Shown here: positions 1 to 10,057 of the stretch, piece after piece
How positions within the stretch are numbered: position 1 is the stretch's first letter
Layout of the letters: every line of letters starts with the position of its first letter
IMG/VR virus record: IMGVR_UViG_2734482778_000005
Coordinates: 1-10,057 of that record
Direction: 5' to 3' (one strand)
Origin: a virus
Lineage: Duplodnaviria; Heunggongvirae; Uroviricota; Caudoviricetes
Length of the DNA: 10,057 nucleotides
Notes under the pieces: generated by a model
What the model was told of the DNA's origin: nothing
Database searches by the model: none
Seen by the model: only the letters and a program-made list of their open reading frames with translations
Translations under genes and position numbers: made by a program

Positions 1-105
1 CCAGAAAATGTTGTCCGGCGTGCGCCACTGATCGCCCACTTCCTTCAGTTCATGGGCTGGTTTGTTCCGCAGTTCCACCAGCGCCTGGCAATATTTATTA
101 CTCAT
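1..105 (-). CDS. N-terminal 35 codons of a gene that continues beyond the window start; possible phage Dam-type DNA N6-adenine methyltransferase
   Basis: Minus-strand ATG at 105-103 overlaps the TAA stop of the upstream gene (TAATG). Reads MSNKYCQALVELRNKPAHELKEVGDQWRTPDNIFW with no stop to the window edge. Codon usage is host-like (CTG, GCG, CCG). The D-x-W-R-T-P motif near the N-terminus resembles phage Dam-family methyltransferases; this is recalled, not searched. Confidence 0.4.
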   Translation of the reverse strand, partial: MSNKYCQALVELRNKPAHELKEVGDQWRTPDNIFW

Positions 106-599
106 TAAGCCCCCACGTAATTCCCTGACAGATACCACTCATCACCCGATACAGCGCGCTTGCTGCTTTTCCGTAAACACTGCTCACGACGCGCCAGAAA
201 ATTGTTTCGTTCTGGCTGGGAGTGGCTTTCACGGAATGCCGCCATCCACACCGTTGCAGCACGACGGTATAAGCCCCTGGACTCCAGTTCTTCCGCCTGG
301 CGGGTCAGGCACAAAATCACCCGGGGATCGTTAGTGCCGACATAGAAATTGCGCACAGGTCTGGTTTCACGAACTGGTTGTGGTTCCGGCTCCTGCGCTC
401 TCTCAGTCAGGCGTGGGAAATGTCTGCGTGTATCTCCTTCACAACGGTGAGCCACACGCCCACTCTGACGTAACTTGCTTGCTGACTGCAGAACGCGCTG
501 CCGTGAGTAACCTGCAAAAGCATCCGCAATGTCTCCGGAAGTACACCCCGGATGGGCTTCAATGAATTTCTGAACGTCATTTAACAGACTCATGATCAC
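105..599 (-). CDS. Hypothetical prophage protein, 164 aa, with a C-terminal PerC-like motif (LESRGLYRRAATVW); possibly YfdN-like
   Basis: Complete ORF on the minus strand. Its ATG at 599-597 overlaps the stop of the O-like gene (ATGA). The C-terminal half carries a motif recalled from the PerC/Pch regulator family. The length equals what I recall for K-12 YfdN, but that is not verified. Confidence 0.65.
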   Translation of the reverse strand: MIMSLLNDVQKFIEAHPGCTSGDIADAFAGYSRQRVLQSASKLRQSGRVAHRCEGDTRRHFPRLTERAQEPEPQPVRETRPVRNFYVGTNDPRVILCLTRQAEELESRGLYRRAATVWMAAFRESHSQPERNNFLARREQCLRKSSKRAVSGDEWYLSGNYVGA

Positions 600-1588
600 C
601 CCCTGAATCCTGCCGGGATCTGGCTGTAGTCCACGTTGTCGTAACTGGCTTTGAAGTACGGGTCTTCACGTTTTTCTGTGTGCGTGCTGACGGACGGCGA
701 TAAGCGCAGGGAAAGCTCATCCCATTTTTCCCGCAACTTCGACGGGCTGAGCACGTTACGGCACCAGAACGGATCGCGGCTGACGCGGCTGTACATCTCG
801 CAGATTTGTTTGTGAGTACGACCATCCTGCACACACATCAGGCGAATTTCGTTTGCCCATGCTGTCCAGTTCGGTTCTTTGGGACGAACCACCTCGCCGT
901 CACATTCGGCGGCCTGCTCGTACAGGGCGATGATTTTTTTCCAGAGCCACTGTGCGCAGGTCAAATCATCCTGCGTTCCCCACTGGCGCTTTTTAGGGCT
1001 GAATACAACCGCATCAGGATGGCGAGTTAAAAACTCCTGTTCAGCCGTTTGCGTGTCCGGTTGCGAAGCGTCCGGACGAGAAGAGGTTTTATTCTCTGTA
1101 GTAATCTCTGTTGTATTCTCTGTAAGATCATTGGGCCATTTTGACCCGATGACAGCGTGTCGTTTTGAACCAATGGATCGTGTCATTTTGCGCCCATCCA
1201 TCAGGTCACTTTGACCCGATGGAGAAGTGCATTTTGACCCGATGGATTCGTTCACTTTGACCTCTTCTAAAAGCTCACTTTCATAGTTGATCGTGTAGAA
1301 GTTGGTCATGTCACGCTTCGATTTATTGAGTTGCTCGCGACGCAAAACCCCAAGTGATTTCAGGCTTGCAAATGTGCGTTTCAGAGTGGACTCTGACCAG
1401 AACGGAAACTGCTCCAGCCACTGTTCTGTCGTGTTATAAACCCAGCGAATTCCGCCATGCTCAGTGCCTGAATTCGTTTCATTCAGCCAGTAATGAAGCT
1501 GCTGCAACACAATTGCCTCATTCAGACCAATACGGCATGCAAGATCACGATTTATCACAATGGGCTGGGATGTCATTAACAGGCTCAT
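596..1588 (-). CDS. Lambdoid replication initiator (O-like), 330 aa, with the replication origin embedded in its coding sequence
   Basis: ATG at 1588 is preceded by GAGGT with a 5-nt spacer. The direct repeats at 1139-1264 fall in the middle of the ORF and encode the repeated SIGSK peptide, as iterons do in lambda O. Downstream gene is coupled by an ATGA overlap. Confidence 0.85.
   Translation of the reverse strand: MSLLMTSQPIVINRDLACRIGLNEAIVLQQLHYWLNETNSGTEHGGIRWVYNTTEQWLEQFPFWSESTLKRTFASLKSLGVLRREQLNKSKRDMTNFYTINYESELLEEVKVNESIGSKCTSPSGQSDLMDGRKMTRSIGSKRHAVIGSKWPNDLTENTTEITTENKTSSRPDASQPDTQTAEQEFLTRHPDAVVFSPKKRQWGTQDDLTCAQWLWKKIIALYEQAAECDGEVVRPKEPNWTAWANEIRLMCVQDGRTHKQICEMYSRVSRDPFWCRNVLSPSKLREKWDELSLRLSPSVSTHTEKREDPYFKASYDNVDYSQIPAGFRG
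1081..1264. repeat. Putative phage origin: six direct iterons at about 23-bp spacing (core TTTTGACCCGATGGA, starting near 1139, 1163, 1186, 1209, 1232, 1255) next to an AT-rich tract (1081-1138) carrying short TTCTCTGT repeats
   Basis: Direct reading of the sequence: four near-identical and two degenerate copies of the TTTTGACC core, phased at 23-24 bp, abutting an AT-rich stretch. This is the classic iteron plus AT-rich lambdoid ori-within-O layout. Confidence 0.65.
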
Positions 1589-1757
1589 GACCGACCTCTA
1601 TTTCCCTGAATTTACGACGAAACTGTTCGAGCGGACTGAAGCATTCATGTTCATAGCCTTCACGGAGGTAGATAACCCGTTGTGTTTCCGGCTCCCAACG
1701 AATGACTCTGACGGGCACTCCGTAGTGATCTTTGAACCAGCGGTTAACTTGTCGCAA
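1545..1757 (-). CDS. Alternative small ORF (70 aa, TTG start); mutually exclusive with most of 1598-1936
   Basis: TTG start is preceded by AAGGAGA with a 7-nt spacer. The product ([40 protein letters not shown]...) has a globular-looking composition. It overlaps the O-like start by 44 nt and overlaps the 112-aa ORF in another frame. Confidence 0.3.
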
Positions 1758-1936
1758 AGGACTGTCTCCTTCTGCCGGTTGAAATCACCCACAGCCCACT
1801 CTGCAAAGCTGTGGGTTACAATTTCCCTGTCACCTGGTACATTCACTGCATAGCAATACTCCACCTTCGCTTTTCCACCCGGTACAGGAAGCGCAATCAG
1901 TTGCGAGCGACGGTAGTGTGTTGTTAAACTGTTCAT
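1598..1936 (-). CDS. Hypothetical protein, 112 aa, between the CII-like and O-like genes
   Basis: ATG at 1936 overlaps the stop of the upstream CII-like gene (ATGA). GGAGA lies 9 nt upstream. The TAG stop at 1600-1598 sits 9 nt before the O-like ATG, inside its ribosome-binding site, which is typical operon spacing. The C-terminal half is S/T/N-rich and less protein-like. Confidence 0.45.
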
Positions 1937-2517
1937 GCGTTAGTTTCTCCACAACCAGAAGCAATCGACGCCACGACGCCCGGAGCTGCACACTCGCGGG
2001 CGTTACTCTTTTCCGGCGCACAAAAAACACGAAATAACAGTGTTAAATGCTCCTGCCACTTCGCCATTACTTGGTAGCTGTTCTCTTCGATTTGCTCACG
2101 CTCAGCCTGGTCAATAACTCCATCAGCAGTTGCCTTGCGTAAGTACTGGGAATGCTTGCCAATCCATTCTATTGACTCCATCAGCCGCTGATTAATGTCA
2201 CCATTGTCAATGTCATCAATGACCACCAGCGGCACAAACACCCCATTACTACGACGGGCTATTGCATCTGTTACATGCCTGGTACCACTGGCATCCTGTA
2301 AAACCATGGCCCACTCAAGTGGAAAAATTTGATCCCCACCGCTACGCAGTCTGTTATGCAATTGATCTTTTGCTGGGGTGATATCATCAGATTTATACAA
2401 ACCAAGAATTTCTGCTGCTTCCTCATAGCCATGAGGTAAATCAGCAATCGTTCTTCGTATTGCTGCCACCAGCCATGCTGGTTGTTTATCAACTTTCCAT
2501 TCAGGTTCTTTACCCAC
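1933..2517 (-). CDS. Phage CII-like regulatory protein (CP76/YdaT-type), 194 aa, GTG start
   Basis: GTG at 2517-2515 is preceded by GAGGA with a 7-nt spacer. It sits immediately downstream of the Cro-like gene (27-nt gap), in the cII position. The central region ([10 protein letters not shown]...[25 protein letters not shown]) resembles CII/CP76-type regulators from memory. Confidence 0.7.
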
Positions 2518-2544
2518 GGTTAATTCCTCATTTCTGTGGTGTTT

Positions 2545-2742
2545 TTATGCCGCAGCACTGTTAGTCTTTTGATATAAAGACACGTCAACTTTCAGTTTCC
2601 CGTTAGTAATTTTTTCTAACTGGTACGCTCGGCCTTCAGGAATAATCTCAGGCCACTCTGAAACAGACGGATGCTTAATACCTAGGGCTTCGGCGGTTTT
2701 ACAAACTCCGCCGAAATAATTAATCACGTCGGATTTCCGCAT
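2545..2742 (-). CDS. Cro-like small HTH regulator (YdaS/Cro family), 65 aa
   Basis: ATG at 2742 is preceded by GGGAGA with a 5-nt spacer. It is the first gene leftward of the operator cluster and divergent from the cI-like gene. The HTH-like segment is GGVCKTAEALGIKHPSVSEW. Confidence 0.8.
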   Translation of the reverse strand: MRKSDVINYFGGVCKTAEALGIKHPSVSEWPEIIPEGRAYQLEKITNGKLKVDVSLYQKTNSAAA

Positions 2743-2773
2743 TTCTGTCTCCCGTTAAATTACGTTAAGCAGA

Positions 2774-2840
2774 AATGTAGGATATCCAACATGCCAATGT
2801 CAAGAATCCTACATGGGCATGTGGTAGGATTGCCTACATG
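2774..2840. promoter_or_regulatory. OR-like operator region: three 18-bp imperfect palindromes (2775-2792, 2797-2814, 2822-2839) overlapping a leftward PR-like promoter (-35 TTGACA at 2803-2798, -10 TACATT at 2779-2774, minus strand) and the cI start
   Basis: Direct reading. The sites are ATGTAGGATATCCAACAT, ATGTCAAGAATCCTACAT and TGGTAGGATTGCCTACAT, sharing the half-site ATGT(A/T)GGAT. The promoter is TTGACA, 18-nt spacer, TACATT, aimed at the cro-like gene. Confidence 0.6.
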
Positions 2841-3491
2841 ATGAACATGAGTGATCGTATTCGCCAAAGGCGAAAAGAACTGAACCTGACACAACAAGCA
2901 CTGGCTGATTTGACTGGTGTGAACCGTGTCACGGTTACTGGATGGGAAAAGGACGACTACCAACCAAATGGAGCCAACCTTCAAGCCCTAGCCAACGCAC
3001 TTAAATGCGATCCTCTGTGGCTTGTTAGCGGAAAAGGCTCGCCTGAACCAAAGATAAATCTAAAACCTGAAATATTCGCAGTTAAAAAAGTCCCCCTCAT
3101 CTCGTGGGTTCAGGCGGGTTCATGGACAATGACGGAGCCTGGTGTCAGGAAAGAAGATGCTGAAGAGTGGGTTTATACTACCGCCCTTGTATCAGAAATG
3201 GCATTTGCACTACGGGTCCGTGGTGATTCAATGACCAATCCCCTCGGCTCACCATCGATACCAGAAGGTTCTATCGTTATCGTAGAGCCAGATATTATTG
3301 ATACAGAGTGTATTAACGGAAAAATCGTTGTTGCCCATATCAATGGTGGGCAAGAAGCGACACTCAAAAAATTTGTTGAGGACTGGCCGAACAGGTATCT
3401 CGTCCCACTAAATCCTAACTATAAAACTATTGAATGCGGTGAGAACTGCAGAATAGTTGGTCTTGTCAAACAAGTAATAATGGATTTTTGA
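2838..3491 (+). CDS. cI: cI-like prophage repressor: N-terminal XRE-type HTH plus C-terminal S24 (LexA-like) autopeptidase domain, 217 aa
   Basis: HTH segment LTQQALADLTGVNRVTVTGWE. A candidate Ala-Gly cleavage site (VQAGSW). The catalytic Ser sits in the GDSM context and a Lys in ATLKKF. The start overlaps the third operator; alternative ATGs lie at 2841 and 2847. Confidence 0.9.
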   Translation: MMNMSDRIRQRRKELNLTQQALADLTGVNRVTVTGWEKDDYQPNGANLQALANALKCDPLWLVSGKGSPEPKINLKPEIFAVKKVPLISWVQAGSWTMTEPGVRKEDAEEWVYTTALVSEMAFALRVRGDSMTNPLGSPSIPEGSIVIVEPDIIDTECINGKIVVAHINGGQEATLKKFVEDWPNRYLVPLNPNYKTIECGENCRIVGLVKQVIMDF

Positions 3492-3511
3492 CACATCTTC
3501 CTCACTATCGC

Positions 3512-3537
3512 AAAACCGGGGTATCCCCGGTTTTTTT
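3512..3537 (+). terminator. Rho-independent terminator after cI (stem AAAACCGGGG / CCCCGGTTTT, 3-nt loop, T7 tail)
   Basis: Perfect 10-bp GC-rich inverted repeat followed by TTTTTTT, 21 nt after the cI stop. The A-tract upstream makes it potentially bidirectional. Confidence 0.7.
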
Positions 3538-3553
3538 ATGAGCCTATCTTTTT

Positions 3554-3607
3554 ATGTAGGATAACCAACATAAACTCTTGACACTCACATGTTGGATATC
3601 CTACATT
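3554..3607 (+). promoter_or_regulatory. OL/PL-like region: two 18-bp operators (3554-3571, 3589-3606) bracketing a rightward promoter (-35 TTGACA at 3578-3583, -10 TACATT at 3602-3607)
   Basis: The operators ATGTAGGATAACCAACAT and ATGTTGGATATCCTACAT share the OR half-site. The promoter has the same TTGACA, 18-nt spacer, TACATT geometry as PR. Confidence 0.6.
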
Positions 3608-3765
3608 TGTTTTTAGAGTTGTGGTGAATGCGCAGGCTGATGCGCGAAAGACATTGCAGCTATTGCGGAAAAGAGCTGTTCGGCGGGGCAATTAAACGCC
3701 CGTGAGAGTCTGAAATAACCGCAAGCCGGAGATCAGCACCGGTCACCACAACAGCCACTGCTTTG

Positions 3766-3813
3766 GCGGTACCAGTTTGTACACTTGCTTCCGGCTGGTA
3801 CCGCTCTTTTTAC
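3766..3813 (+). other. Strong hairpin in the PL leader (10-bp perfect stem GCGGTACCAG / CTGGTACCGC, 19-nt loop, then TCTTTTT); possible attenuator or terminator
   Basis: Perfect inverted repeat read directly, followed by a T-rich run, about 135 nt upstream of the first early-left gene. Function is not established. Confidence 0.3.
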
Positions 3814-3948
3814 AAAACAGAGAAGAGCATCACCGGACGACGGGCTCATAACCCAATCCATCCGGGCGGCTGCCACCGCAGGTGTTCTTCTCTGTTTTGT
3901 GGAGAAACTAACCGACCTTGCAGGGTCGATATGATGAGGAGCAGCAAA

Positions 3949-4311
3949 ATGGCTAGCGAACGCAGTACTGATGTGCAGGCATTTATTGGGGAGCTGGACG
4001 GCGGCGTATTTGAAACCAAAATCGGCGCAGTTCTCAGTGAAGTCGCTTCCGGTGTGATGAACACGAAAACCAAAGGTAAGGTCTCGCTCAACCTGGAAAT
4101 CGAACCGTTTGATGAGAATCGTGTGAAAATCAAACACAAACTCTCGTATGTTCGCCCGACTAACCGCGGGAAAATTTCCGAAGAAGACACCACCGAAACG
4201 CCGATGTATGTCAATCGCGGTGGTCGCCTGACTATTCTGCAGGAAGACCAGGGACAATTACTGACTCTTGCTGGTGAACCTGACGGAAAACTCCGCGCAG
4301 CAGGTCATTAA
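3949..4311 (+). CDS. yfdP: YfdP-like prophage protein, 120 aa
   Basis: ATG at 3949 is preceded by GAGGAG with a 7-nt spacer. The ORF-track start at 3763 is a TTG with an implausible N-terminal extension. Length and position directly upstream of the YfdQ/YfdR-like genes match the CPS-53 yfdP-yfdQ-yfdR order as I recall it. Confidence 0.65.
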   Translation: MASERSTDVQAFIGELDGGVFETKIGAVLSEVASGVMNTKTKGKVSLNLEIEPFDENRVKIKHKLSYVRPTNRGKISEEDTTETPMYVNRGGRLTILQEDQGQLLTLAGEPDGKLRAAGH

Positions 4312-4376
4312 TATCGTTCTTAATTAACTGATTATTTATCTCATCACTGAATATCTTTATATAGTGAGGACTTATT

Positions 4377-5201
4377 ATGTCTCAGAACTTAGACGCAACC
4401 GCAATTAATCAAATCCATGCCCTTATTTCTGCTCAGGGTGTTAATGAAATTATCAGTAAGATTGGTGCCGATGCTGTGGCATTGCCTGAGAATTTCCGCA
4501 TTCATGATCTGGAAAAATTTAATTTAAATCGCTTCCGTTTCCGTGGTGCGCTTTCCACTGCCAGCATCGATGACTTTACCCGTTATTCTAAAGATCTTGC
4601 AGATGAAGGCACCCGCTGCTTTATCGATGCTGATAATATGCGTGCCGTCAGTGTGCTTAACCTGGGTACTATTGATGAACCAGGTCACGCAGATAACACC
4701 GCCACTCTCAAACTGAAAAAGACAGCACCGTTCTCTGCTCTGTTGTCTGTTAATGGCGAGCGTAACTCCCAGAAATCACTGGCAGAATGGATTGAAGACT
4801 GGGCCGACTACCTTGTGGGCTTTGATACTAATGGTGACACCATTCAGGCAACAAAAGCGGCTGCGGCGGTCCGTAAAATCACGATTGAAGCAAACCAGAC
4901 CGCTGATTTTGAGGATAATGACTTCAGCGGCAAACGCTCCCTGATGGAGTCTGTCGAAGCGAAGACCAAAGACATTATGCCAGTGGCATTTGAATTTAAA
5001 TGCGTTCCGTTTGAAGGCCTTAAAGAACGTCCGTTTAAATTACGCCTCAGCATTATCACTGGCGATCGTCCTGTACTGGTTCTGCGCATTATTCAGCTGG
5101 AAGCGGTGCAGGAAGAAATGGCTAACGAATTTCGTGATCTGCTTGTTGAGAAATTCAAAGACAGCAAAGTAGAAACCTTTATTGGTACTTTCACCGCCTG
5201 A
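4377..5201 (+). CDS. yfdQ: YfdQ-like protein (DUF2303 family), 274 aa
   Basis: ATG is preceded by GAGGA with a 6-nt spacer. It is a long clean ORF with host-like codon usage. The sequence and length match my recollection of CPS-53 YfdQ. Confidence 0.8.
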
Positions 5202-5213
5202 TTTCATTACTGC

Positions 5214-5235
5214 AAATGCCCCTGCGGGGGCATTT
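5214..5235 (+). terminator. Terminator-like hairpin after yfdQ (AAATGCCCC, loop TGCG, GGGGCATTT) with a weak U-tail
   Basis: Perfect 9-bp inverted repeat 13 nt after the yfdQ stop. Only three T residues follow, so it is probably a partial terminator or an RNA-stability element. Confidence 0.3.
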
Positions 5236-5329
5236 ATGGAAACGTAATTAACTCAATAATCGCCGGATGGTGAGGGCTTCCTTTTACCCGAATTCAGCGC
5301 GGTGCAGCGCATATAACGTGGAGAACAAA

Positions 5330-5866
5330 ATGTCATTTATTAAAACTTTTTCCGGGAAGCATTTTTATTATGACAGGATAAATAAAGACAACATCGATAT
5401 TAACGATATCGCGGTTTCCCTTTCAAATATCTGTCGCTTTGCCGGTCATCTTTCACACTTCTACAGCGTCGCCCAACATGCGGTGCTTTGCAGCCAGCTG
5501 GTGCCGCAGGAATTTGCTTTTGAAGCGTTAATGCATGATGCAACAGAAGCGTATTGCCAGGACATCCCCGCGCCACTGAAACGCCTTCTTCCTGACTATA
5601 AACGGATGGAAGAAAAAATAGACGCCGTAATCCGTGAGAAATACGGGTTACCCCCGGTTATGAGTACGCCCGTGAAATATGCCGATCTCATCATGCTGGC
5701 AACCGAACGCCGTGATCTCGGGCTTGATGATGGCTCTTTCTGGCCTGTACTGGAAGGCATCCCGGCAACAGAGATGTTCAACGTGATTCCACTGGCACCG
5801 GGCCATGCCTACGGGATGTTTATGGAACGCTTCAACGAGTTATCGGAATTACGCAAATGTGCATAA
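5330..5866 (+). CDS. yfdR: YfdR-like HD-domain phosphohydrolase (5'-deoxynucleotidase-type), 178 aa
   Basis: ATG at 5330 is preceded by GGAG. HD motif (ALMHDATEA) and upstream His residues are present. Length and sequence match my recollection of K-12 YfdR. The ORF-track start at 5267 is an upstream in-frame extension. Confidence 0.8.
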   Translation: MSFIKTFSGKHFYYDRINKDNIDINDIAVSLSNICRFAGHLSHFYSVAQHAVLCSQLVPQEFAFEALMHDATEAYCQDIPAPLKRLLPDYKRMEEKIDAVIREKYGLPPVMSTPVKYADLIMLATERRDLGLDDGSFWPVLEGIPATEMFNVIPLAPGHAYGMFMERFNELSELRKCA

Positions 5867-6735
5867 CTCATGTAGTTAGTTTTTCTGGCGGGAGAACATC
5901 TGCATATCTTGTTCACCTGATGGAAGAACAAAGAAAGGCTGGCAATAACGTCTGCTACATCTTTATGGATACCGGTTGCGAACATCCGCTGACATACCGC
6001 TTTATTCGGGAGGTTGTGAAGTTCTGGGGCATACCGCTAACTGTGTTGCAGGTCGATATAAATCCAGAGCTTGGGCAGCCAAATGGTTATACGGAATGGG
6101 AACCAAAGGATATTCAGACACGAATGCCGGTGCTTAAACCGTTTATGGACATGGTAAAAAAATATGGCACGCCATACATCGGCGGCGCATTCTGCACTGA
6201 CAGATTAAAACTCACCCCCTTCACAAAATACTGCGATGACCATTTCGGACGAGGGAATTACATCACATGGCTGGGTATTCGTGCAGACGAACCTCGTAGG
6301 CTGAAACCGAAATCGGGCGTCCGGTATCTTGCCGAGCTATCTGATTTTGATAAGTCGGATGTTATCCGGTGGTGGCATAAACAACCTTTTGATTTGCAAA
6401 TCCCGGAGCACCTCGGGAACTGTGTTTTCTGCATCAAAAAGTCCACGCAAAAGCTGGGGCTTGCATGTAAAGACGAACCTGGTCTGATGCGAGTTTTTAA
6501 TGAGCTGGTTACAGGTAAACACGTCCGGGATGGTCACCGAAAGACAAATAAAGACGTTATGTACCGTGGTCATCTGAGCCTTGACGGGATTGCCAGAATG
6601 TATGCCGACAGCGACTACAGAAATTTGTATCAGGCGATGGTGCAAGCCAGGCGATTCGATACCGGCTCGTGTTCAGGGTCATGTGAAATCTGGGGTGATC
6701 AATTGGAGTTGAAATTCGAAGAGGTGGTGGCATGA
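5857..6735 (+). CDS. PAPS-reductase-like PP-loop ATP-pyrophosphatase family protein, 292 aa
   Basis: N-terminal PP-loop SFSGGRTS (SGGxxS type). The start overlaps the yfdR stop by 10 nt and the stop overlaps the next start (ATGA). It is a long ORF with several Cys residues near the C-terminus. Confidence 0.8.
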   Translation: MCITHVVSFSGGRTSAYLVHLMEEQRKAGNNVCYIFMDTGCEHPLTYRFIREVVKFWGIPLTVLQVDINPELGQPNGYTEWEPKDIQTRMPVLKPFMDMVKKYGTPYIGGAFCTDRLKLTPFTKYCDDHFGRGNYITWLGIRADEPRRLKPKSGVRYLAELSDFDKSDVIRWWHKQPFDLQIPEHLGNCVFCIKKSTQKLGLACKDEPGLMRVFNELVTGKHVRDGHRKTNKDVMYRGHLSLDGIARMYADSDYRNLYQAMVQARRFDTGSCSGSCEIWGDQLELKFEEVVA

Positions 6736-7205
6736 CAACCAAAATTAACTATCAGGCACTGCGTGAGGCGGCAGAAGCAATAAAAATAGTAGCCACACCA
6801 CAAAAATTGCTGGCATTTCGTATGAAAGTCACACCGCAGGTTGTGCTGGCGCTGCTGGATGAGCTGGAAGCAGCAGAGAAGCGAAACGCTGAATTACAAA
6901 GCGAGAATGCATACATCCGCAACCGGTACAAAGAACTGGACCTATTAATCGGGAAAAACATTCTGGTCATGCAGGCTGCCATTATCGAATGGCAGGCAAC
7001 TGGCGACGCTAAGAGCGGACTGGCATGGATTTATAACACACTGTTTGGCCCTGGCGAATTACCGGACGAATCTGAGAAAGATGCTCAGGCCTACTTTAAT
7101 CGCAAATATGCACCGATTGACGAAAAGCTTATGGCGCTTCACAAGTGGTTTTGGGAACAAAGTGAAGCCGAGCGCGCCGCTGGCATTCGCATCAAAGGAG
7201 AGTGA
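6732..7205 (+). CDS. Ea22-like (ead/Ea22 family) phage early protein, 157 aa
   Basis: ATGA overlap with the upstream gene; GAGGTG ribosome-binding site. The N-terminal YQALREAAEA and coiled-coil-like central region resemble Ea22-family prophage proteins from memory. Confidence 0.6.
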   Translation: MTTKINYQALREAAEAIKIVATPQKLLAFRMKVTPQVVLALLDELEAAEKRNAELQSENAYIRNRYKELDLLIGKNILVMQAAIIEWQATGDAKSGLAWIYNTLFGPGELPDESEKDAQAYFNRKYAPIDEKLMALHKWFWEQSEAERAAGIRIKGE

Positions 7206-7206
7206 T

Positions 7207-7470
7207 ATGGCAACTTTGACAAAAAAGGAACAGGCATGGTTGAGCGAATTACAGAACGTTCTTGATCGCTGCCCGTCACCGAAAAAAATTGGTTTTTACA
7301 CCATTGGCGATAAAAACATTTACCTGTATGACCTACGCCGCATGGATGAAATCATGGAGGCTCTTGATAATCGTTCGTCAATGGATTGGTGTGTTGCTGT
7401 CCATGATATGAATGCCGGATTTGAAGAAAAGATTTTGTTCCCCTCGTCAGTTGAAAGCACAGCGGGTTAA
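7207..7470 (+). CDS. Hypothetical phage protein, 87 aa
   Basis: ATG at 7207 is preceded by AGGAG with an 8-nt spacer and starts 1 nt after the upstream TGA. The ORF-track start at 7045 is an in-frame extension overlapping the upstream gene. Confidence 0.6.
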   Translation: MATLTKKEQAWLSELQNVLDRCPSPKKIGFYTIGDKNIYLYDLRRMDEIMEALDNRSSMDWCVAVHDMNAGFEEKILFPSSVESTAG

Positions 7471-7480
7471 GGACTAACAC

Positions 7481-7945
7481 ATGACAACGTTCACCGACAA
7501 AGAACTGATTAAAGAAATCAAAGAGCGCATAGGCAGCCTGCCAGAATTAATCGAAGGCATGGAAGTTTCCATTGATGTAAGCACTTGTGATGCTGATTTA
7601 GGTAATCGCTATTTCGGCACCGTCACCGAGGCGTTAGAACTTGATACAGCCAAGAATGGTTACATCCTCCTGGTTCAGGACGCAGAGCCAAACTTCGATG
7701 TAAATGGCAACTCTCCGGGAACTCCGGATAGTTGGATAAGCTGTAGTGATCGAATGCCTGAAAAGGGCCAGAACGTGCTTATTTCGGTGAATTTCGATAG
7801 CTCTCTGGTTGAACCGCTAATATGCTCCGCACGCTATACCGGAAGCACCTTTCGGCGCGGAGATGCAACGATTAAGCCGGGTAATGGTATTGAGCAAGCA
7901 ACTCACTGGATGCCGCTACCGGAACCGCCGCAGGAGGTGAAGTGA
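7481..7945 (+). CDS. DUF551-family phage protein, 154 aa
   Basis: AAGGA with a 7-nt spacer. The C-terminal segment (WISCSDRMPEKGQNVLI ... HWMPLPEPP) matches the DUF551 pattern as I recall it. Confidence 0.7.
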   Translation: MTTFTDKELIKEIKERIGSLPELIEGMEVSIDVSTCDADLGNRYFGTVTEALELDTAKNGYILLVQDAEPNFDVNGNSPGTPDSWISCSDRMPEKGQNVLISVNFDSSLVEPLICSARYTGSTFRRGDATIKPGNGIEQATHWMPLPEPPQEVK

Positions 7946-8517
7946 TGAACAACTTAATGATCGACCTTGAGACGATGGGGAAAAATAAGGATGCACCGAT
8001 CGTTTCCATTGGCGCGGTGTTCTTCACTCCAGAAACCGGAGACATCGGACAAGAATTCTATACGGTTGTTAGCCTGGAAAGTGCTATGGGGCAAGGAGCT
8101 ACACCTGACGGCGATACCATCCTGTGGTGGTTGAAACAAAGCCCTGAAGCACGAGCTGCAATCTGTATTGATGATACTTTGTCGATCAGCGATGCTCTCT
8201 CAGAACTAAATCATTTCATTAACCGGCACGCAGCCAATACGAAATATTTAAAAGTCTGGGGTAACGGGGCCACCTTCGACAACGTAATTTTACGTGGAGC
8301 TTATGAGCGAGCAGGACAAATCTGCCCGTGGGCATACTGGAATGACCACGATGTACGCACGATCGTTACGCTTGGGCGTTCCATCGGATTCGACCCCAAA
8401 ATGGACATCCCTTTCGATGGCGAACGGCACAACGCCCTAGCCGATGCCCGTCATCAGGCAAAATATGTTTCCGCTATCTGGCAGAAATTAATTCCTGCCA
8501 CCAGCACAGAATTATGA
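7945..8517 (+). CDS. DEDD-type (DnaQ-like) 3'-5' exonuclease, 190 aa
   Basis: Exo I motif IDLETMG, Exo II region WGNGATFDNVIL and Exo III HNALADARH are in the expected order. ATG at 7945 has AGGAGG with a 7-nt spacer; the GTG at 7942 in the ORF track is too close to that site. It overlaps the upstream stop (TGATG). Confidence 0.8.
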   Translation: MNNLMIDLETMGKNKDAPIVSIGAVFFTPETGDIGQEFYTVVSLESAMGQGATPDGDTILWWLKQSPEARAAICIDDTLSISDALSELNHFINRHAANTKYLKVWGNGATFDNVILRGAYERAGQICPWAYWNDHDVRTIVTLGRSIGFDPKMDIPFDGERHNALADARHQAKYVSAIWQKLIPATSTEL

Positions 8518-8553
8518 TTTTCCCGGGTGCAGCCGGTTTTGATGGAGAAAATT

Positions 8554-8826
8554 ATGAATACCTTGTTTTTACTGATGGCTGAATTCAATACCCCTAACAT
8601 TGAACTCTCAGCAGTTAGCCAAAAGTACTTTGGCATGAGTCCAGCCACGGCAGAAGCAAAAGCAAACGCTTGTAAGTTGCCCGTTCCAACATATCGCATC
8701 GGCACATCACAAAAAGCAAAACGTTGCATCAATATTCAGGATCTTGCGGAATACATAGACAAAAGGCGAGAAGAAGGGCGTGCTGAGTGGGAAAGGGTCA
8801 GAACCCATAAACAAAGGCTCATTTAA
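8554..8826 (+). CDS. PrtN-family / excisionase-like small DNA-binding protein, 90 aa
   Basis: ATG at 8554 is preceded by GGAGA. The product (MNTLFLLMAEFNTPNIELSAVSQKYFGMSPATAEAKANACKLPVPTYR...) resembles PrtN/Xis-like proteins from memory. It is the last gene of the rightward operon. Confidence 0.6.
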   Translation: MNTLFLLMAEFNTPNIELSAVSQKYFGMSPATAEAKANACKLPVPTYRIGTSQKAKRCINIQDLAEYIDKRREEGRAEWERVRTHKQRLI

Positions 8827-8834
8827 ATAGAATA

Positions 8835-8866
8835 TGAATAAACCCATCCAAAGATGGGTTTATTCA
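8835..8866. terminator. Perfect 14-bp inverted repeat (TGAATAAACCCATC, loop CAAA, GATGGGTTTATTCA) between convergent genes; candidate bidirectional terminator
   Basis: Read directly. The right arm contains the stop codon of the minus-strand gene. A T-rich run follows on the minus-strand transcript, so it probably works better for the leftward cassette. Confidence 0.5.
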
Positions 8867-9321
8867 TAATGTTGAAGAGCAGCGAGTATCAGTTTTTTAT
8901 GCCGTTTAACCATAGTTTTAGATATCTCAACTGCACATCGAACTTGTCTCATACAATGATCTGTAATGCGACCTTTTAGCACGTCACCATATTGGATGGC
9001 TATTTTCTCTTTAATAATTTCAAGATCGAAAGCAGCATGAGCCTCAATGCAATTAACAAATGAGTCCCATTTAAGAAAATCATGGTCCTCTCTATTAATT
9101 TCGACCTGACAAGCCATAAGATCATTGTTTCTCTTAATAAATTCATTTATATCTGAATTTATTAGAAGAACTAAAAGAGGTTCACAGCAAACAACCACCA
9201 TATATTTTACTTTAGGTGGGGTCGTAAAATCACAATGAAGATACAATACATCACCGGGTGATATACCTCTTTCACGACTAAAATTAGCCTTAAAATCAGG
9301 AGGGAAACAATCACCCAGCAT
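8860..9321 (-). CDS. Hypothetical protein, 153 aa, no family recognised; candidate toxin or effector partner of the upstream Panacea-domain gene
   Basis: ATG at 9321-9319 lies 5 nt after the TGA of the Panacea-domain gene. The ORF track extends to a TTG at 9330, which would give an ATGA-type overlap. AT-rich codon usage differs from the rest of the window. No known motif identified by eye. Confidence 0.65.
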   Translation of the reverse strand: MLGDCFPPDFKANFSRERGISPGDVLYLHCDFTTPPKVKYMVVVCCEPLLVLLINSDINEFIKRNNDLMACQVEINREDHDFLKWDSFVNCIEAHAAFDLEIIKEKIAIQYGDVLKGRITDHCMRQVRCAVEISKTMVKRHKKLILAALQHYE

Positions 9322-9326
9322 AAGTA

Positions 9327-9908
9327 TCAATATCCGTTCTTCAGATAATCCAGTATTAATTTGCTATTTTTTAGCTGTGCAACTATCGATTCCAAAGACA
9401 TCTCACCATTGTGATCTGCCTGTTCCCATGCCGCGTCATGGCTCATGGTTCTGATAGCTTCAAAGGACATGTTTCCAAGCATCGCGATAGACTTATCAAT
9501 ACACTCTAAATCTGAGTCACTAAAAAAGTCTTCATCAGCTTCACGGCTCGGCACAATCGTCATACCTGATACAGAAAATGCTTTTCGCACAGAATCGACA
9601 TCACAACCATTAGGAATGTAACGTCCATCTCCACGAGCAATTTTTATAATATCGTATGTGTTGCTTGCTACAGGCCCATCCTTCATAGCGTTATAGTGAT
9701 CGCCCGTTATGAGGCGTCCAAAACTTTCAAGGTGAAACCTGTCAGCATAATAAAGAATTTTTCCGACATGATAGATATCTGGGATCGGTGCTTTAGAGGC
9801 GACGTACAGAATGGCCTCTAAAGCCTTTTCTGAATCAAACCTTACATTTAGCATCAATACACCCTTCATCCAAACAACATCGTCAAGCTCTGGCAAATGC
9901 AACCGCAT
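9327..9908 (-). CDS. Panacea (DUF4065) domain protein, SocA/GepA-like, 193 aa (possibly 175 aa from an internal ATG at 9854)
   Basis: N-terminal region (EAILYVASKAP-IPDIYHVGKILYYADRFHLESFGRLITGDHYNAMKDGPV) matches the Panacea/COG3600 signature (KLxKLLYYA ... GPV). The C-terminal part (LSDSDLECIDKSIAMLGNMSFEAIRTMSHDAAWEQA) matches the second conserved block. No ribosome-binding site precedes the ATG at 9908; AAGGG precedes the ATG at 9854. Confidence 0.7.
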   Translation of the reverse strand: MRLHLPELDDVVWMKGVLMLNVRFDSEKALEAILYVASKAPIPDIYHVGKILYYADRFHLESFGRLITGDHYNAMKDGPVASNTYDIIKIARGDGRYIPNGCDVDSVRKAFSVSGMTIVPSREADEDFFSDSDLECIDKSIAMLGNMSFEAIRTMSHDAAWEQADHNGEMSLESIVAQLKNSKLILDYLKNGY

Positions 9909-9920
9909 CCGCCTTCTACA

Positions 9921-9950
9921 ATCTTAAAGTCTTCACCTACGCTAGGTCAA
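9921..9950 (-). promoter_or_regulatory. Candidate sigma70 promoter for the leftward two-gene cassette (-35 TTGACC at 9950-9945, 18-nt spacer, -10 TAAGAT at 9926-9921)
   Basis: Hexamers read on the minus strand upstream of the Panacea-domain gene. The -10 matches the consensus at 4 of 6 positions. Weak call. Confidence 0.25.
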
Positions 9951-10057
9951 TTGAAGTGATGAGCAAATGATGCTTTCTAAGAAGAACAGGTTCCCAATAG
10001 GCTCCCACAAAGTGTATAACTACTTGTTTTTCAAAAACGGTACATCCTATCGAGCAT

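Follow-up and report, generated by a model that had tools for sequence, protein, structure and literature searches.

The question raised by this locus is whether the two gaps that flank a cI-type repressor gene hold a complete genetic switch, and whether this switch follows an operator specificity of its own, i.e., constitutes its own immunity group. The window, by which we mean the whole stretch of 10,057 nucleotides analyzed here, covers positions 1 to 10,057 of the Caudoviricetes record IMGVR_UViG_2734482778_000005 in IMG/VR, and the part in question very probably represents the immunity (lysis-lysogeny) region of a lambdoid Escherichia coli prophage of the phage P22 immC/phage 21 type. At its center lies the repressor gene cI (2838..3491, plus strand; 217 aa), whose product carries the Pfam domains HTH_3 and Peptidase_S24. 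It diverges from a cro-like gene (2545..2742, minus strand; 65 aa; Pfam P22_Cro, E = 7.6e-22), from which it is separated by an intergenic gap of 95 bp, and on its far side a 70-bp stretch leads from the hairpin and T run behind cI to the left end of the switch, ending in an outward promoter. The original prediction read this arrangement as a complete lambda-like switch with its own operator specificity. The answer reached here is that the module is a previously uncharacterized immunity specificity of a known kind, which is likely to work like that of P22, judging from its sequence, but to stand outside the P22/21 immunity group.

The operators were predicted as five imperfect palindromes around cI, three of them upstream of the gene and two past its terminator. 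When the whole window was searched with the 18-mer operator consensus ATGTWGGATATCCWACAT, allowing at most three mismatches, exactly three matches were obtained: 2775-2792 (0 mismatches), 3554-3571 (1 mismatch) and 3589-3606 (0 mismatches). The chance expectation from shuffled sequences is 0.01, and none of 200 shuffles attained three. A symmetrized position matrix, built from 18 sites taken solely from related loci, was then scanned over the window, and its five top-scoring positions are precisely the five palindromes of the prediction, which is thereby borne out. The sixth-ranked position, 2949-2966, scores 2.18 bits, and the best matrix score in shuffled windows averages 7.6 bits. Four of the sites, to none of which a strand is assigned, are far above chance: the left operators OL1 (ATGTTGGATATCCTACAT, 3589..3606; 0 mismatches, 28.2 bits) and OL2 (ATGTAGGATAACCAACAT, 3554..3571; 1 mismatch, 25.7 bits), and the right operators OR1 (ATGTAGGATATCCAACAT, 2775..2792; 0 mismatches, 28.05 bits) and OR3 (TGGTAGGATTGCCTACAT, 2822..2839; 4 mismatches, 21.75 bits). 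The fifth and weak site, OR2 (ATGTCAAGAATCCTACAT, 2797..2814), scores 8.85 bits with one perfect half-site.

Could these palindromes be chance or non-regulatory repeats, or binding sites of a protein other than the adjacent repressor? This is extremely improbable, given how rarely such matches are expected and given that the sites are confined to the two regulatory gaps around cI, where they lie over promoters. Moreover, they are conserved across genera while their flanks diverge, and the type of operator fits the fold family of the repressor. The family consensus, ATGTAGGATATCCTACAT, has the form ATGTWGG-N4-CCWACAT, and the matrix holds 0.5-0.65 bits of information at positions 8-11 as against 0.7-1.8 bits at the outer positions. 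The half-site is taken as ATGTWGG, because only the outer 7 bp are conserved and the central 4 bp, which appear not to be read sequence-specifically, vary among relatives. The half-site first proposed, ATGT(A/T)GGAT, thus keeps its outer part and loses its inner one.

What the sites would do follows from their placement on the promoters. A promoter scan identified a PR-like promoter, i.e., a rightward promoter, on the minus strand (2774..2803; -35 TTGACA at 2803-2798, 18-nt spacer, -10 TACATT at 2779-2774) and a leftward, PL-like promoter on the plus strand (3578..3607; again TTGACA, 18 nt, TACATT). Each matches 10 of 12 consensus positions, which confirms the predicted pair of twin promoters with an operator on the spacer and the -10. 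In both, the operator begins 5 nt past the -35 and ends within the -10: OR1 covers the PR spacer plus five bases of the -10, OL1 covers the PL spacer and -10, and 6 nt separate OL2 from the PL -35 downstream of it. Transcription is predicted to start at 2767 (minus strand) for PR and at 3615 (plus strand) for PL. OR2 overlaps the PR -35, and OR3 overlaps the start codon of cI.

In the mechanism proposed, a repressor dimer would bind the 18-bp operators. Since OR1 and OL1 take up the spacer and the greater part of the -10 of two identical strong promoters, bound repressor would occlude both elements and so block RNA polymerase there. At PR, this block would silence cro, the CII-like gene and the replication genes; at PL, it would silence the early left operon. 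The weak OR2 over the PR -35 would probably be filled cooperatively from OR1. OR3 overlaps not only the start codon of cI but also the region in which the maintenance promoter is expected, and it therefore probably limits cI expression, shutting the gene off at high repressor levels or when Cro is bound; the P22-type Cro would be expected at the same operator sites. RecA-stimulated self-cleavage between Ala93 and Gly94 would induce the prophage. Aligned with P22 c2, the repressor shows no change at Ala93-Gly94, Ser131 or Lys177/178, which also align with lambda cI, so that the residues for SOS induction, the Ala-Gly site and the Ser/Lys dyad, appear intact. That the repressor binds, that it does so cooperatively, how OR2 and OR3 act, and that the module is heteroimmune to P22 and 21 are points that we infer from the sequence.

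Support for the sites as functional elements comes from phylogenetic footprinting. Copies of the module that are at least 99% identical are too alike to inform on site conservation, and diverged relatives were gathered by scans of genome and viral collections. Their repressors are 92% (an IMG/VR contig, L073), 90% (Erwinia tracheiphila), 83-84% (Enterobacter soli and IMG/VR contigs), 80% and 75-76% (Pantoea brenneri and others) and 60.5% (coliphage mEp390) identical to the present one, and the recognition helix, GVNRVTVTGWE, is identical in all of them. OR1, OR3, OL1 and OL2, together with the arrangement OL2-6 nt-TTGACA-5 nt-OL1, are kept alongside repressors that are 92, 84, 80, 76 and 60% identical. 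OR1 is invariant in every relative with at least 75% repressor identity, though its flanks diverge, and OR3 is nearly invariant in all relatives, even in the 60%-identical mEp390. The -35 elements of PR and PL are invariant as well. The cro leader and the spacers between the right operators, on the other hand, are largely different. On the left side, every relative preserves the outer 7 bp of both sites, the -35 and the 6-nt spacing to TTGACA, while the flanks and the central 4 bp of OL2 are free to vary; conservation averages 0.93 in OL1 and 0.87 in OL2 as compared to 0.62 in the flanks. One of the relatives is itself damaged: in the E. tracheiphila locus (L010, 1501-2004), the reading frame of the 90%-identical repressor is shortened to 167 aa and the rest continues out of frame, which probably marks a decaying prophage.

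The place behind cI is occupied by an intrinsic terminator (3512..3537, plus strand; AAAACCGGGG-TAT-CCCCGGTTTT and a T run; -17 kcal/mol, z-score -3.5), of which the hairpin proper spans 3512-3534. Every relative carries a comparable hairpin in this position behind its repressor gene. The terminator sits immediately upstream of OL2, where a third left operator, OL3, would be, in the window as in all relatives, and no third OL site was found in the window or in any relative.

Several observations weigh against a tripartite right operator and a lambda-style regulation of cI. The score of OR2 is near the best chance score of a shuffled 10-kb sequence, the half of it that is conserved falls on the PR -35, and its conservation may stem from the promoter alone. 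Not significant on score alone, OR2 rests on its rank, its position and its partial conservation. One could thus take only OR1, OR3, OL1 and OL2 for true operators, four in all, with a bipartite OR in which OR2 is nothing but the PR -35 plus a chance half-site. The invariant part of OR2, ATGTCAAGA, indeed contains the TTGACA of the -35, the right half drifts to TCTTACCT in relatives, and the 8.85 bits compare with a mean best chance score of 7.6. However, OR2 ranks fifth among about 10,000 positions and is placed exactly between its neighbors, its center being 22 bp from that of OR1 and 25 bp from that of OR3; its right half in the window is a perfect half-site; and in P22 and 21, where the corresponding distances as read from the sequences are 23 and 25 bp, OR2 is likewise a poor match. 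The bipartite operator is hence regarded as unlikely, if still worth considering, and five sites are retained in what follows.

The maintenance promoter for cI, PRM, was not convincingly found in a by-eye search for -10/-35 pairs upstream of the in-frame ATGs at 2838, 2841 and 2847. One candidate -10, TAGGAT at 2825-2830, would give a leaderless messenger RNA starting at A2838; it has no usable -35, and OR2 would lie over the -35 position. The center of OR2 would then fall near -32, unlike in lambda-style activation. The other candidate, TACATG at 2835-2840, would start near 2847 and place OR2 at -41.5. The two candidates imply different roles of OR2, and the sequence alone cannot choose between them. 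A further difficulty concerns the left side: the distance of 35 bp between OL1 and OL2 is no whole number of helical turns, which makes side-by-side cooperativity uncertain there.

Which known switch does the module resemble most? The N-terminal domain of the repressor matches structures of P22 c2 (1adr, 3jxb, 2r1j; phmmer, E = 4e-14 to 6e-14, residues 4-66), the C-terminal domain matches lambda cI (3bdn, E = 7e-25), and the protein as a whole is 45% identical to a P22-type c2. The cro-like product shares 49% identity with P22-type Cro and 57% with gp38 of mEp390. The immC region of P22 and the immunity region of phage 21, which are near-twins, are the closest known systems. They share with the present module operators of 18 bp with 7-bp half-sites and a 4-bp center that is tolerant of change, as well as an OR3 next to the repressor start, which abuts the ATG there and overlaps the start codon here. 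The PL geometry is alike too, with a -35, 4-5 nt, an OL1 that ends in the -10, and an OL2 centered 35 bp upstream. In contrast to the two left operators found here (five operators in all), P22 and 21 have OL1-3 (six operators), and an annotated N-type antiterminator gene follows their PL, whereas none does here; the CII-like gene of the present module is of the large CP76 type. In the record of lambda h434 imm21, the imm21 cI is interrupted.

Further differences concern the half-site and the helix that reads it: ATTTAAG and SNVAISQ (helix 3) in P22 and 21 versus ATGTWGG and NRVTVTG here. PMC5175364, with reference to Watkins et al. (2008), describes six natural P22 operators of the consensus ATTTAAGATATCTTAAAT, in which a TTAAG core is read by Val33 and the 4-bp center is uncontacted. 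The family consensus has the same length as that of P22 and shares 14 of its 18 positions; the differences are symmetric and affect half-site positions 3 and 6, i.e., they lie inside the TTAAG core. In helix 3, the valine (Val33) is conserved, while Ser31-Asn32 is replaced by Asn-Arg and Ser36-Gln37 by Thr-Gly. By analogy to P22, Val33 would take part in reading the half-site here as well (PMC5175364), and it is plausible that the arginine faces the new G:C pairs and forms the basis of the changed readout.

One might argue that the module has the same immunity as P22 and 21 and that its operator has merely drifted, without a specificity of its own. The shared operator length, central spacer and geometry, the 14 of 18 common consensus positions and the conserved Val33 speak for this reading. 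However, the differences hit the TTAAG core at half-site positions 3 and 6 in each of the strong sites and throughout the relatives. The natural operators of P22 and 21 score -3.8 to 3.0 bits on the family matrix, i.e., none exceeds 3 bits, versus 22-28 bits for the four strong sites. Finally, five of seven compared positions of helix 3 differ, among them Asn32 to Arg and Gln37 to Gly. Mere drift is thus very improbable. Because the P22/21 operators score poorly on the family matrix and the recognition helix differs, a separate immunity specificity is the likely reading, to which we return.

This specificity does not appear to be private to the prophage. Judged by the shared helix and the near-identical operators, it is common to prophages of Enterobacter, Pantoea and Erwinia and probably to mEp390, and these relatives, probably including mEp390, may be homoimmune with the prophage studied here. 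Of the claim that the module has its own operator specificity, the difference from P22 and 21 therefore stands, whereas its uniqueness does not. mEp390 carries the closest repressor among named phages (60.5%), with an identical helix 3 and an identical OR3, and it shares the geometry of PR and PL and both OL sites with the present module. It differs in outer operator positions (TAGTAGG, AAGTAAG), and its C-terminal domain and neighbor genes have diverged. Within the collection of papers searched, no relevant match was obtained for the operator strings or for the regulation of mEp390.

The likeness to lambda itself is more general. It comprises the order PL-OL, cI, OR (PRM/PR), cro, cII, a tripartite OR, the location of OR1 and OL1 within the spacer and -10 of strong outward promoters, and a C-terminal domain that is homologous to the cleavage and oligomerization domain of lambda cI. 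In contrast, lambda operators measure 17 bp and are unrelated in sequence (-38 bits on the family matrix), the N-terminal domain belongs to another family, and lambda possesses rexAB, N/nut and a third OL site. The Shiga toxin phage 933W provides a parallel for the number of sites: OL3 is absent there (PMC3317979), so that three OR and two OL sites represent a known arrangement. The repressor and operator sequences are different, a 933W-type cI being about 34-36% identical to the present repressor. Regarding the description as a complete lambda-like switch, the lambdoid gene content, layout and promoter geometry hold, while the closest model is P22 immC/phage 21 and not lambda. As to completeness, OR, OL, cI and cro are present, whereas an OL3, an N gene, a recognizable nut site and a PRM were not identified.

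The genes around the switch are in the order of a lambdoid prophage. On the minus strand, a CII-like activator gene of the PR operon (1933..2517; Pfam Phage_CP76; PHROG 101 CII-like transcriptional activator, E = 3e-62) lies beyond cro, along with an unknown gene, an O-like replication gene and a transcriptional activator gene. Beyond PL, there are a YfdP-like gene (3949-4311), a DUF2303 gene, a phosphatase gene and a gene for a protein like phosphoadenosine phosphosulfate (PAPS) reductase. The 10-kb window contains no transfer RNA (tRNA) or transfer-messenger RNA (tmRNA) genes.

The module is widespread in E. coli, being present at 99% identity or above in 140 of 5426 complete genomes. At the same level of identity it occurs in six phage records (Stx2c_EH0430, EH0474, JNE082796, Lys8385Vzw, vB_EcoM-720R4 and SKA5), and the phage copies are annotated merely as cI or LexA family. 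Some carriers are Shiga toxin (Stx)-converting phages; the carriers as a whole include Stx2c-converting prophages and prophages of Shiga toxin-producing E. coli (STEC) of the types O103/O111. In vB_EcoM-720R4 (L005) and SKA5, the match to 2540-3960 falls into two pieces that span about 650 bp extra, which indicates an insertion in the PL leader. On the PL side, the immunity module ends in a mosaic joint at 3617/3618, directly past the predicted PL start, and the sequence 3' of this joint is common to phages of other immunities, such as mEp460, cdtI, SfV and Stx2a phages.

How, then, is the early left operon expressed? In the 340 nt after PL and before the YfdP-like gene, no open reading frame (ORF) of at least 40 aa starts, and no gene for an N-like antiterminator is present. 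The YfdP-like product, encoded by the first gene beyond PL, has no match to Pfam or to an antiterminator PHROG, and no nut site is recognizable in the module. An N-type gene together with a nut site is a defining feature of the lambda/P22 early operon rather than of the switch itself. The 340-nt leader folds very stably (z-score -5.75) and begins with a structured RNA element of 135 nt (3618..3752, plus strand), a closed multi-branch fold with a covarying family, which lies outside the operator finding. It starts about 3 nt past the predicted PL start and is directly followed by a terminator-like hairpin, recognized by sequence and predicted fold (3766..3811, plus strand; GCGGTACCAG-19 nt-CTGGTACCGC, then TCTTTTT), with a GC-rich stem of 10 bp. 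The combination of RNA element, terminator-like hairpin and missing N gene led to the proposal that expression of the early left operon is RNA-based: the left arm of the switch would be under the control of RNA instead of an N protein, and the element would act in cis, via antitermination similar to HK022 put or via tRNA-like processing. This proposal is tentative and rather doubtful.

A put-type antiterminator of the HK022 kind was looked for in the PL leader (3608-3949) by blastn and rejected, as there is no similarity to the HK022 PL-nun region. The leader has further features of its own. The tail of the terminator-like hairpin, CGCTCTTTTTACAA, resembles boxA. A long, nearly perfect hairpin is located within 3812-3900 (plus strand), just upstream of the first PL gene, and the stretch 3806-3912, which includes it, recurs with 83-85% identity in the Salmonella phages ST64B, F1055, As1 and 118970_sal3. 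Two small ORFs overlap the RNA element, one starting with GTG at 3621 (24 aa, arginine-rich) and one with ATG at 3628 (25 aa, CxxC); they are probably not genes.

The existence of an RNA family represented by this element is well supported, while its proposed function is speculative. The segment 3618-3752 recurs at 98.5% identity in unrelated phages, namely the two P1-like phages RCS47 and vB_EcoM-813R1 as well as Klebsiella phage IME207, and the element is found in 845 of 5426 E. coli genomes, unannotated there. Exact searches with either of the conserved family ends (UGAAUGCGCAGGCUGAUGCGC ... GCCGGAGAUCAGCACCGGCCA) yielded at least 120 IMG/VR loci each. Hosts of the family comprise lambdoid, P1-like and virulent Klebsiella and Escherichia phages, in which the element often lies beside tRNA genes. 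Other loci with the element are L093, L094 and L004 (each 2501-2635), L095-L099 and L100-L300.

The conserved scaffold consists of a closing stem, P1, that ends in UG:CA and, after AAU, a 5' hairpin, P2 (GCGCA-GGCUGA-UGCGC). A variable insert of about 30-200 nt is followed by the hairpin GCCGG-AGAUCAGCA-CCGGC, which abuts the 3' strand of P1. With nothing but the motif as anchor for the 3' end, 95-99% of 86 distinct members form the five P1 pairs beside UG:CA, each of which occurs in three to four pair types, as compared to shuffled partners that pair in 52-55% at three positions and in 79% and 89% at the two nearest UG:CA. For P2, compensatory changes occur at all five pairs in a trimmed alignment of 69 diverse members. 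The covariation score of these 69 trimmed members is 0.288 versus 0.090 for shuffles (attained by none of 500) and at most 0.11 for slid partners. The loops of the two hairpins are complementary (GCUGA/UCAGC); this loop-loop pairing is invariant, and covariation hence neither supports nor refutes it.

Regarding the genomic context of the family, all 14 tRNA genes within 600 nt of the element are on the same strand, and 40 of 89 members have a ribosome-binding site and an ORF within 150 nt downstream; where the element is not next to tRNA genes, it often lies 20-40 nt ahead of an ORF. A promoter directly upstream was considered as a general family feature and dismissed: it is present in 1 of 127 members, the one with the context of the window, and the element is therefore not generally located at the 5' end of a transcript. 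The family is apparently undescribed. It has no match in Rfam 15, and its motif strings gave no relevant match in the collection of papers searched. Likewise, no Rfam match overlaps the operators or the leader element when the window is searched at gathering thresholds, the segment 3480-4000 at E-values up to 10, and 13 related loci. On the IMG/VR contig L129, a Proteo-phage-1 RNA (Rfam RF03044; 3205-3282, minus strand; 76.8 bits) precedes a family member on the same strand by about 120 nt. In Klebsiella phage 6991 (L099; 299-399 and 401-512), the flanks of the element, GTGCTCTTTCC ... GGTAAGAGCAC, are inverted repeats and recur upstream; a sequence like a tRNA 3' end is found about 30 nt downstream, where ARAGORN calls no tRNA.

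The operator finding leaves the concepts of the field unchanged and describes an ordinary variant of the P22/21 switch. The adjacent leader RNA, with its conserved scaffold, its variable insert and no family assignment, may matter more. Nevertheless, an operator code is now defined for an immunity group that is present in about 2.6% of complete E. coli genomes, and with this code one can predict homoimmunity and heteroimmunity between these prophages. Moreover, the repressor represents a natural specificity variant of the thoroughly studied P22 c2 fold, in which TTAAG is changed to GTAGG while Val33 is kept and Asn32 and Gln37 are replaced by Arg and Gly, and which could be used for studying the divergence of repressor-operator pairs.

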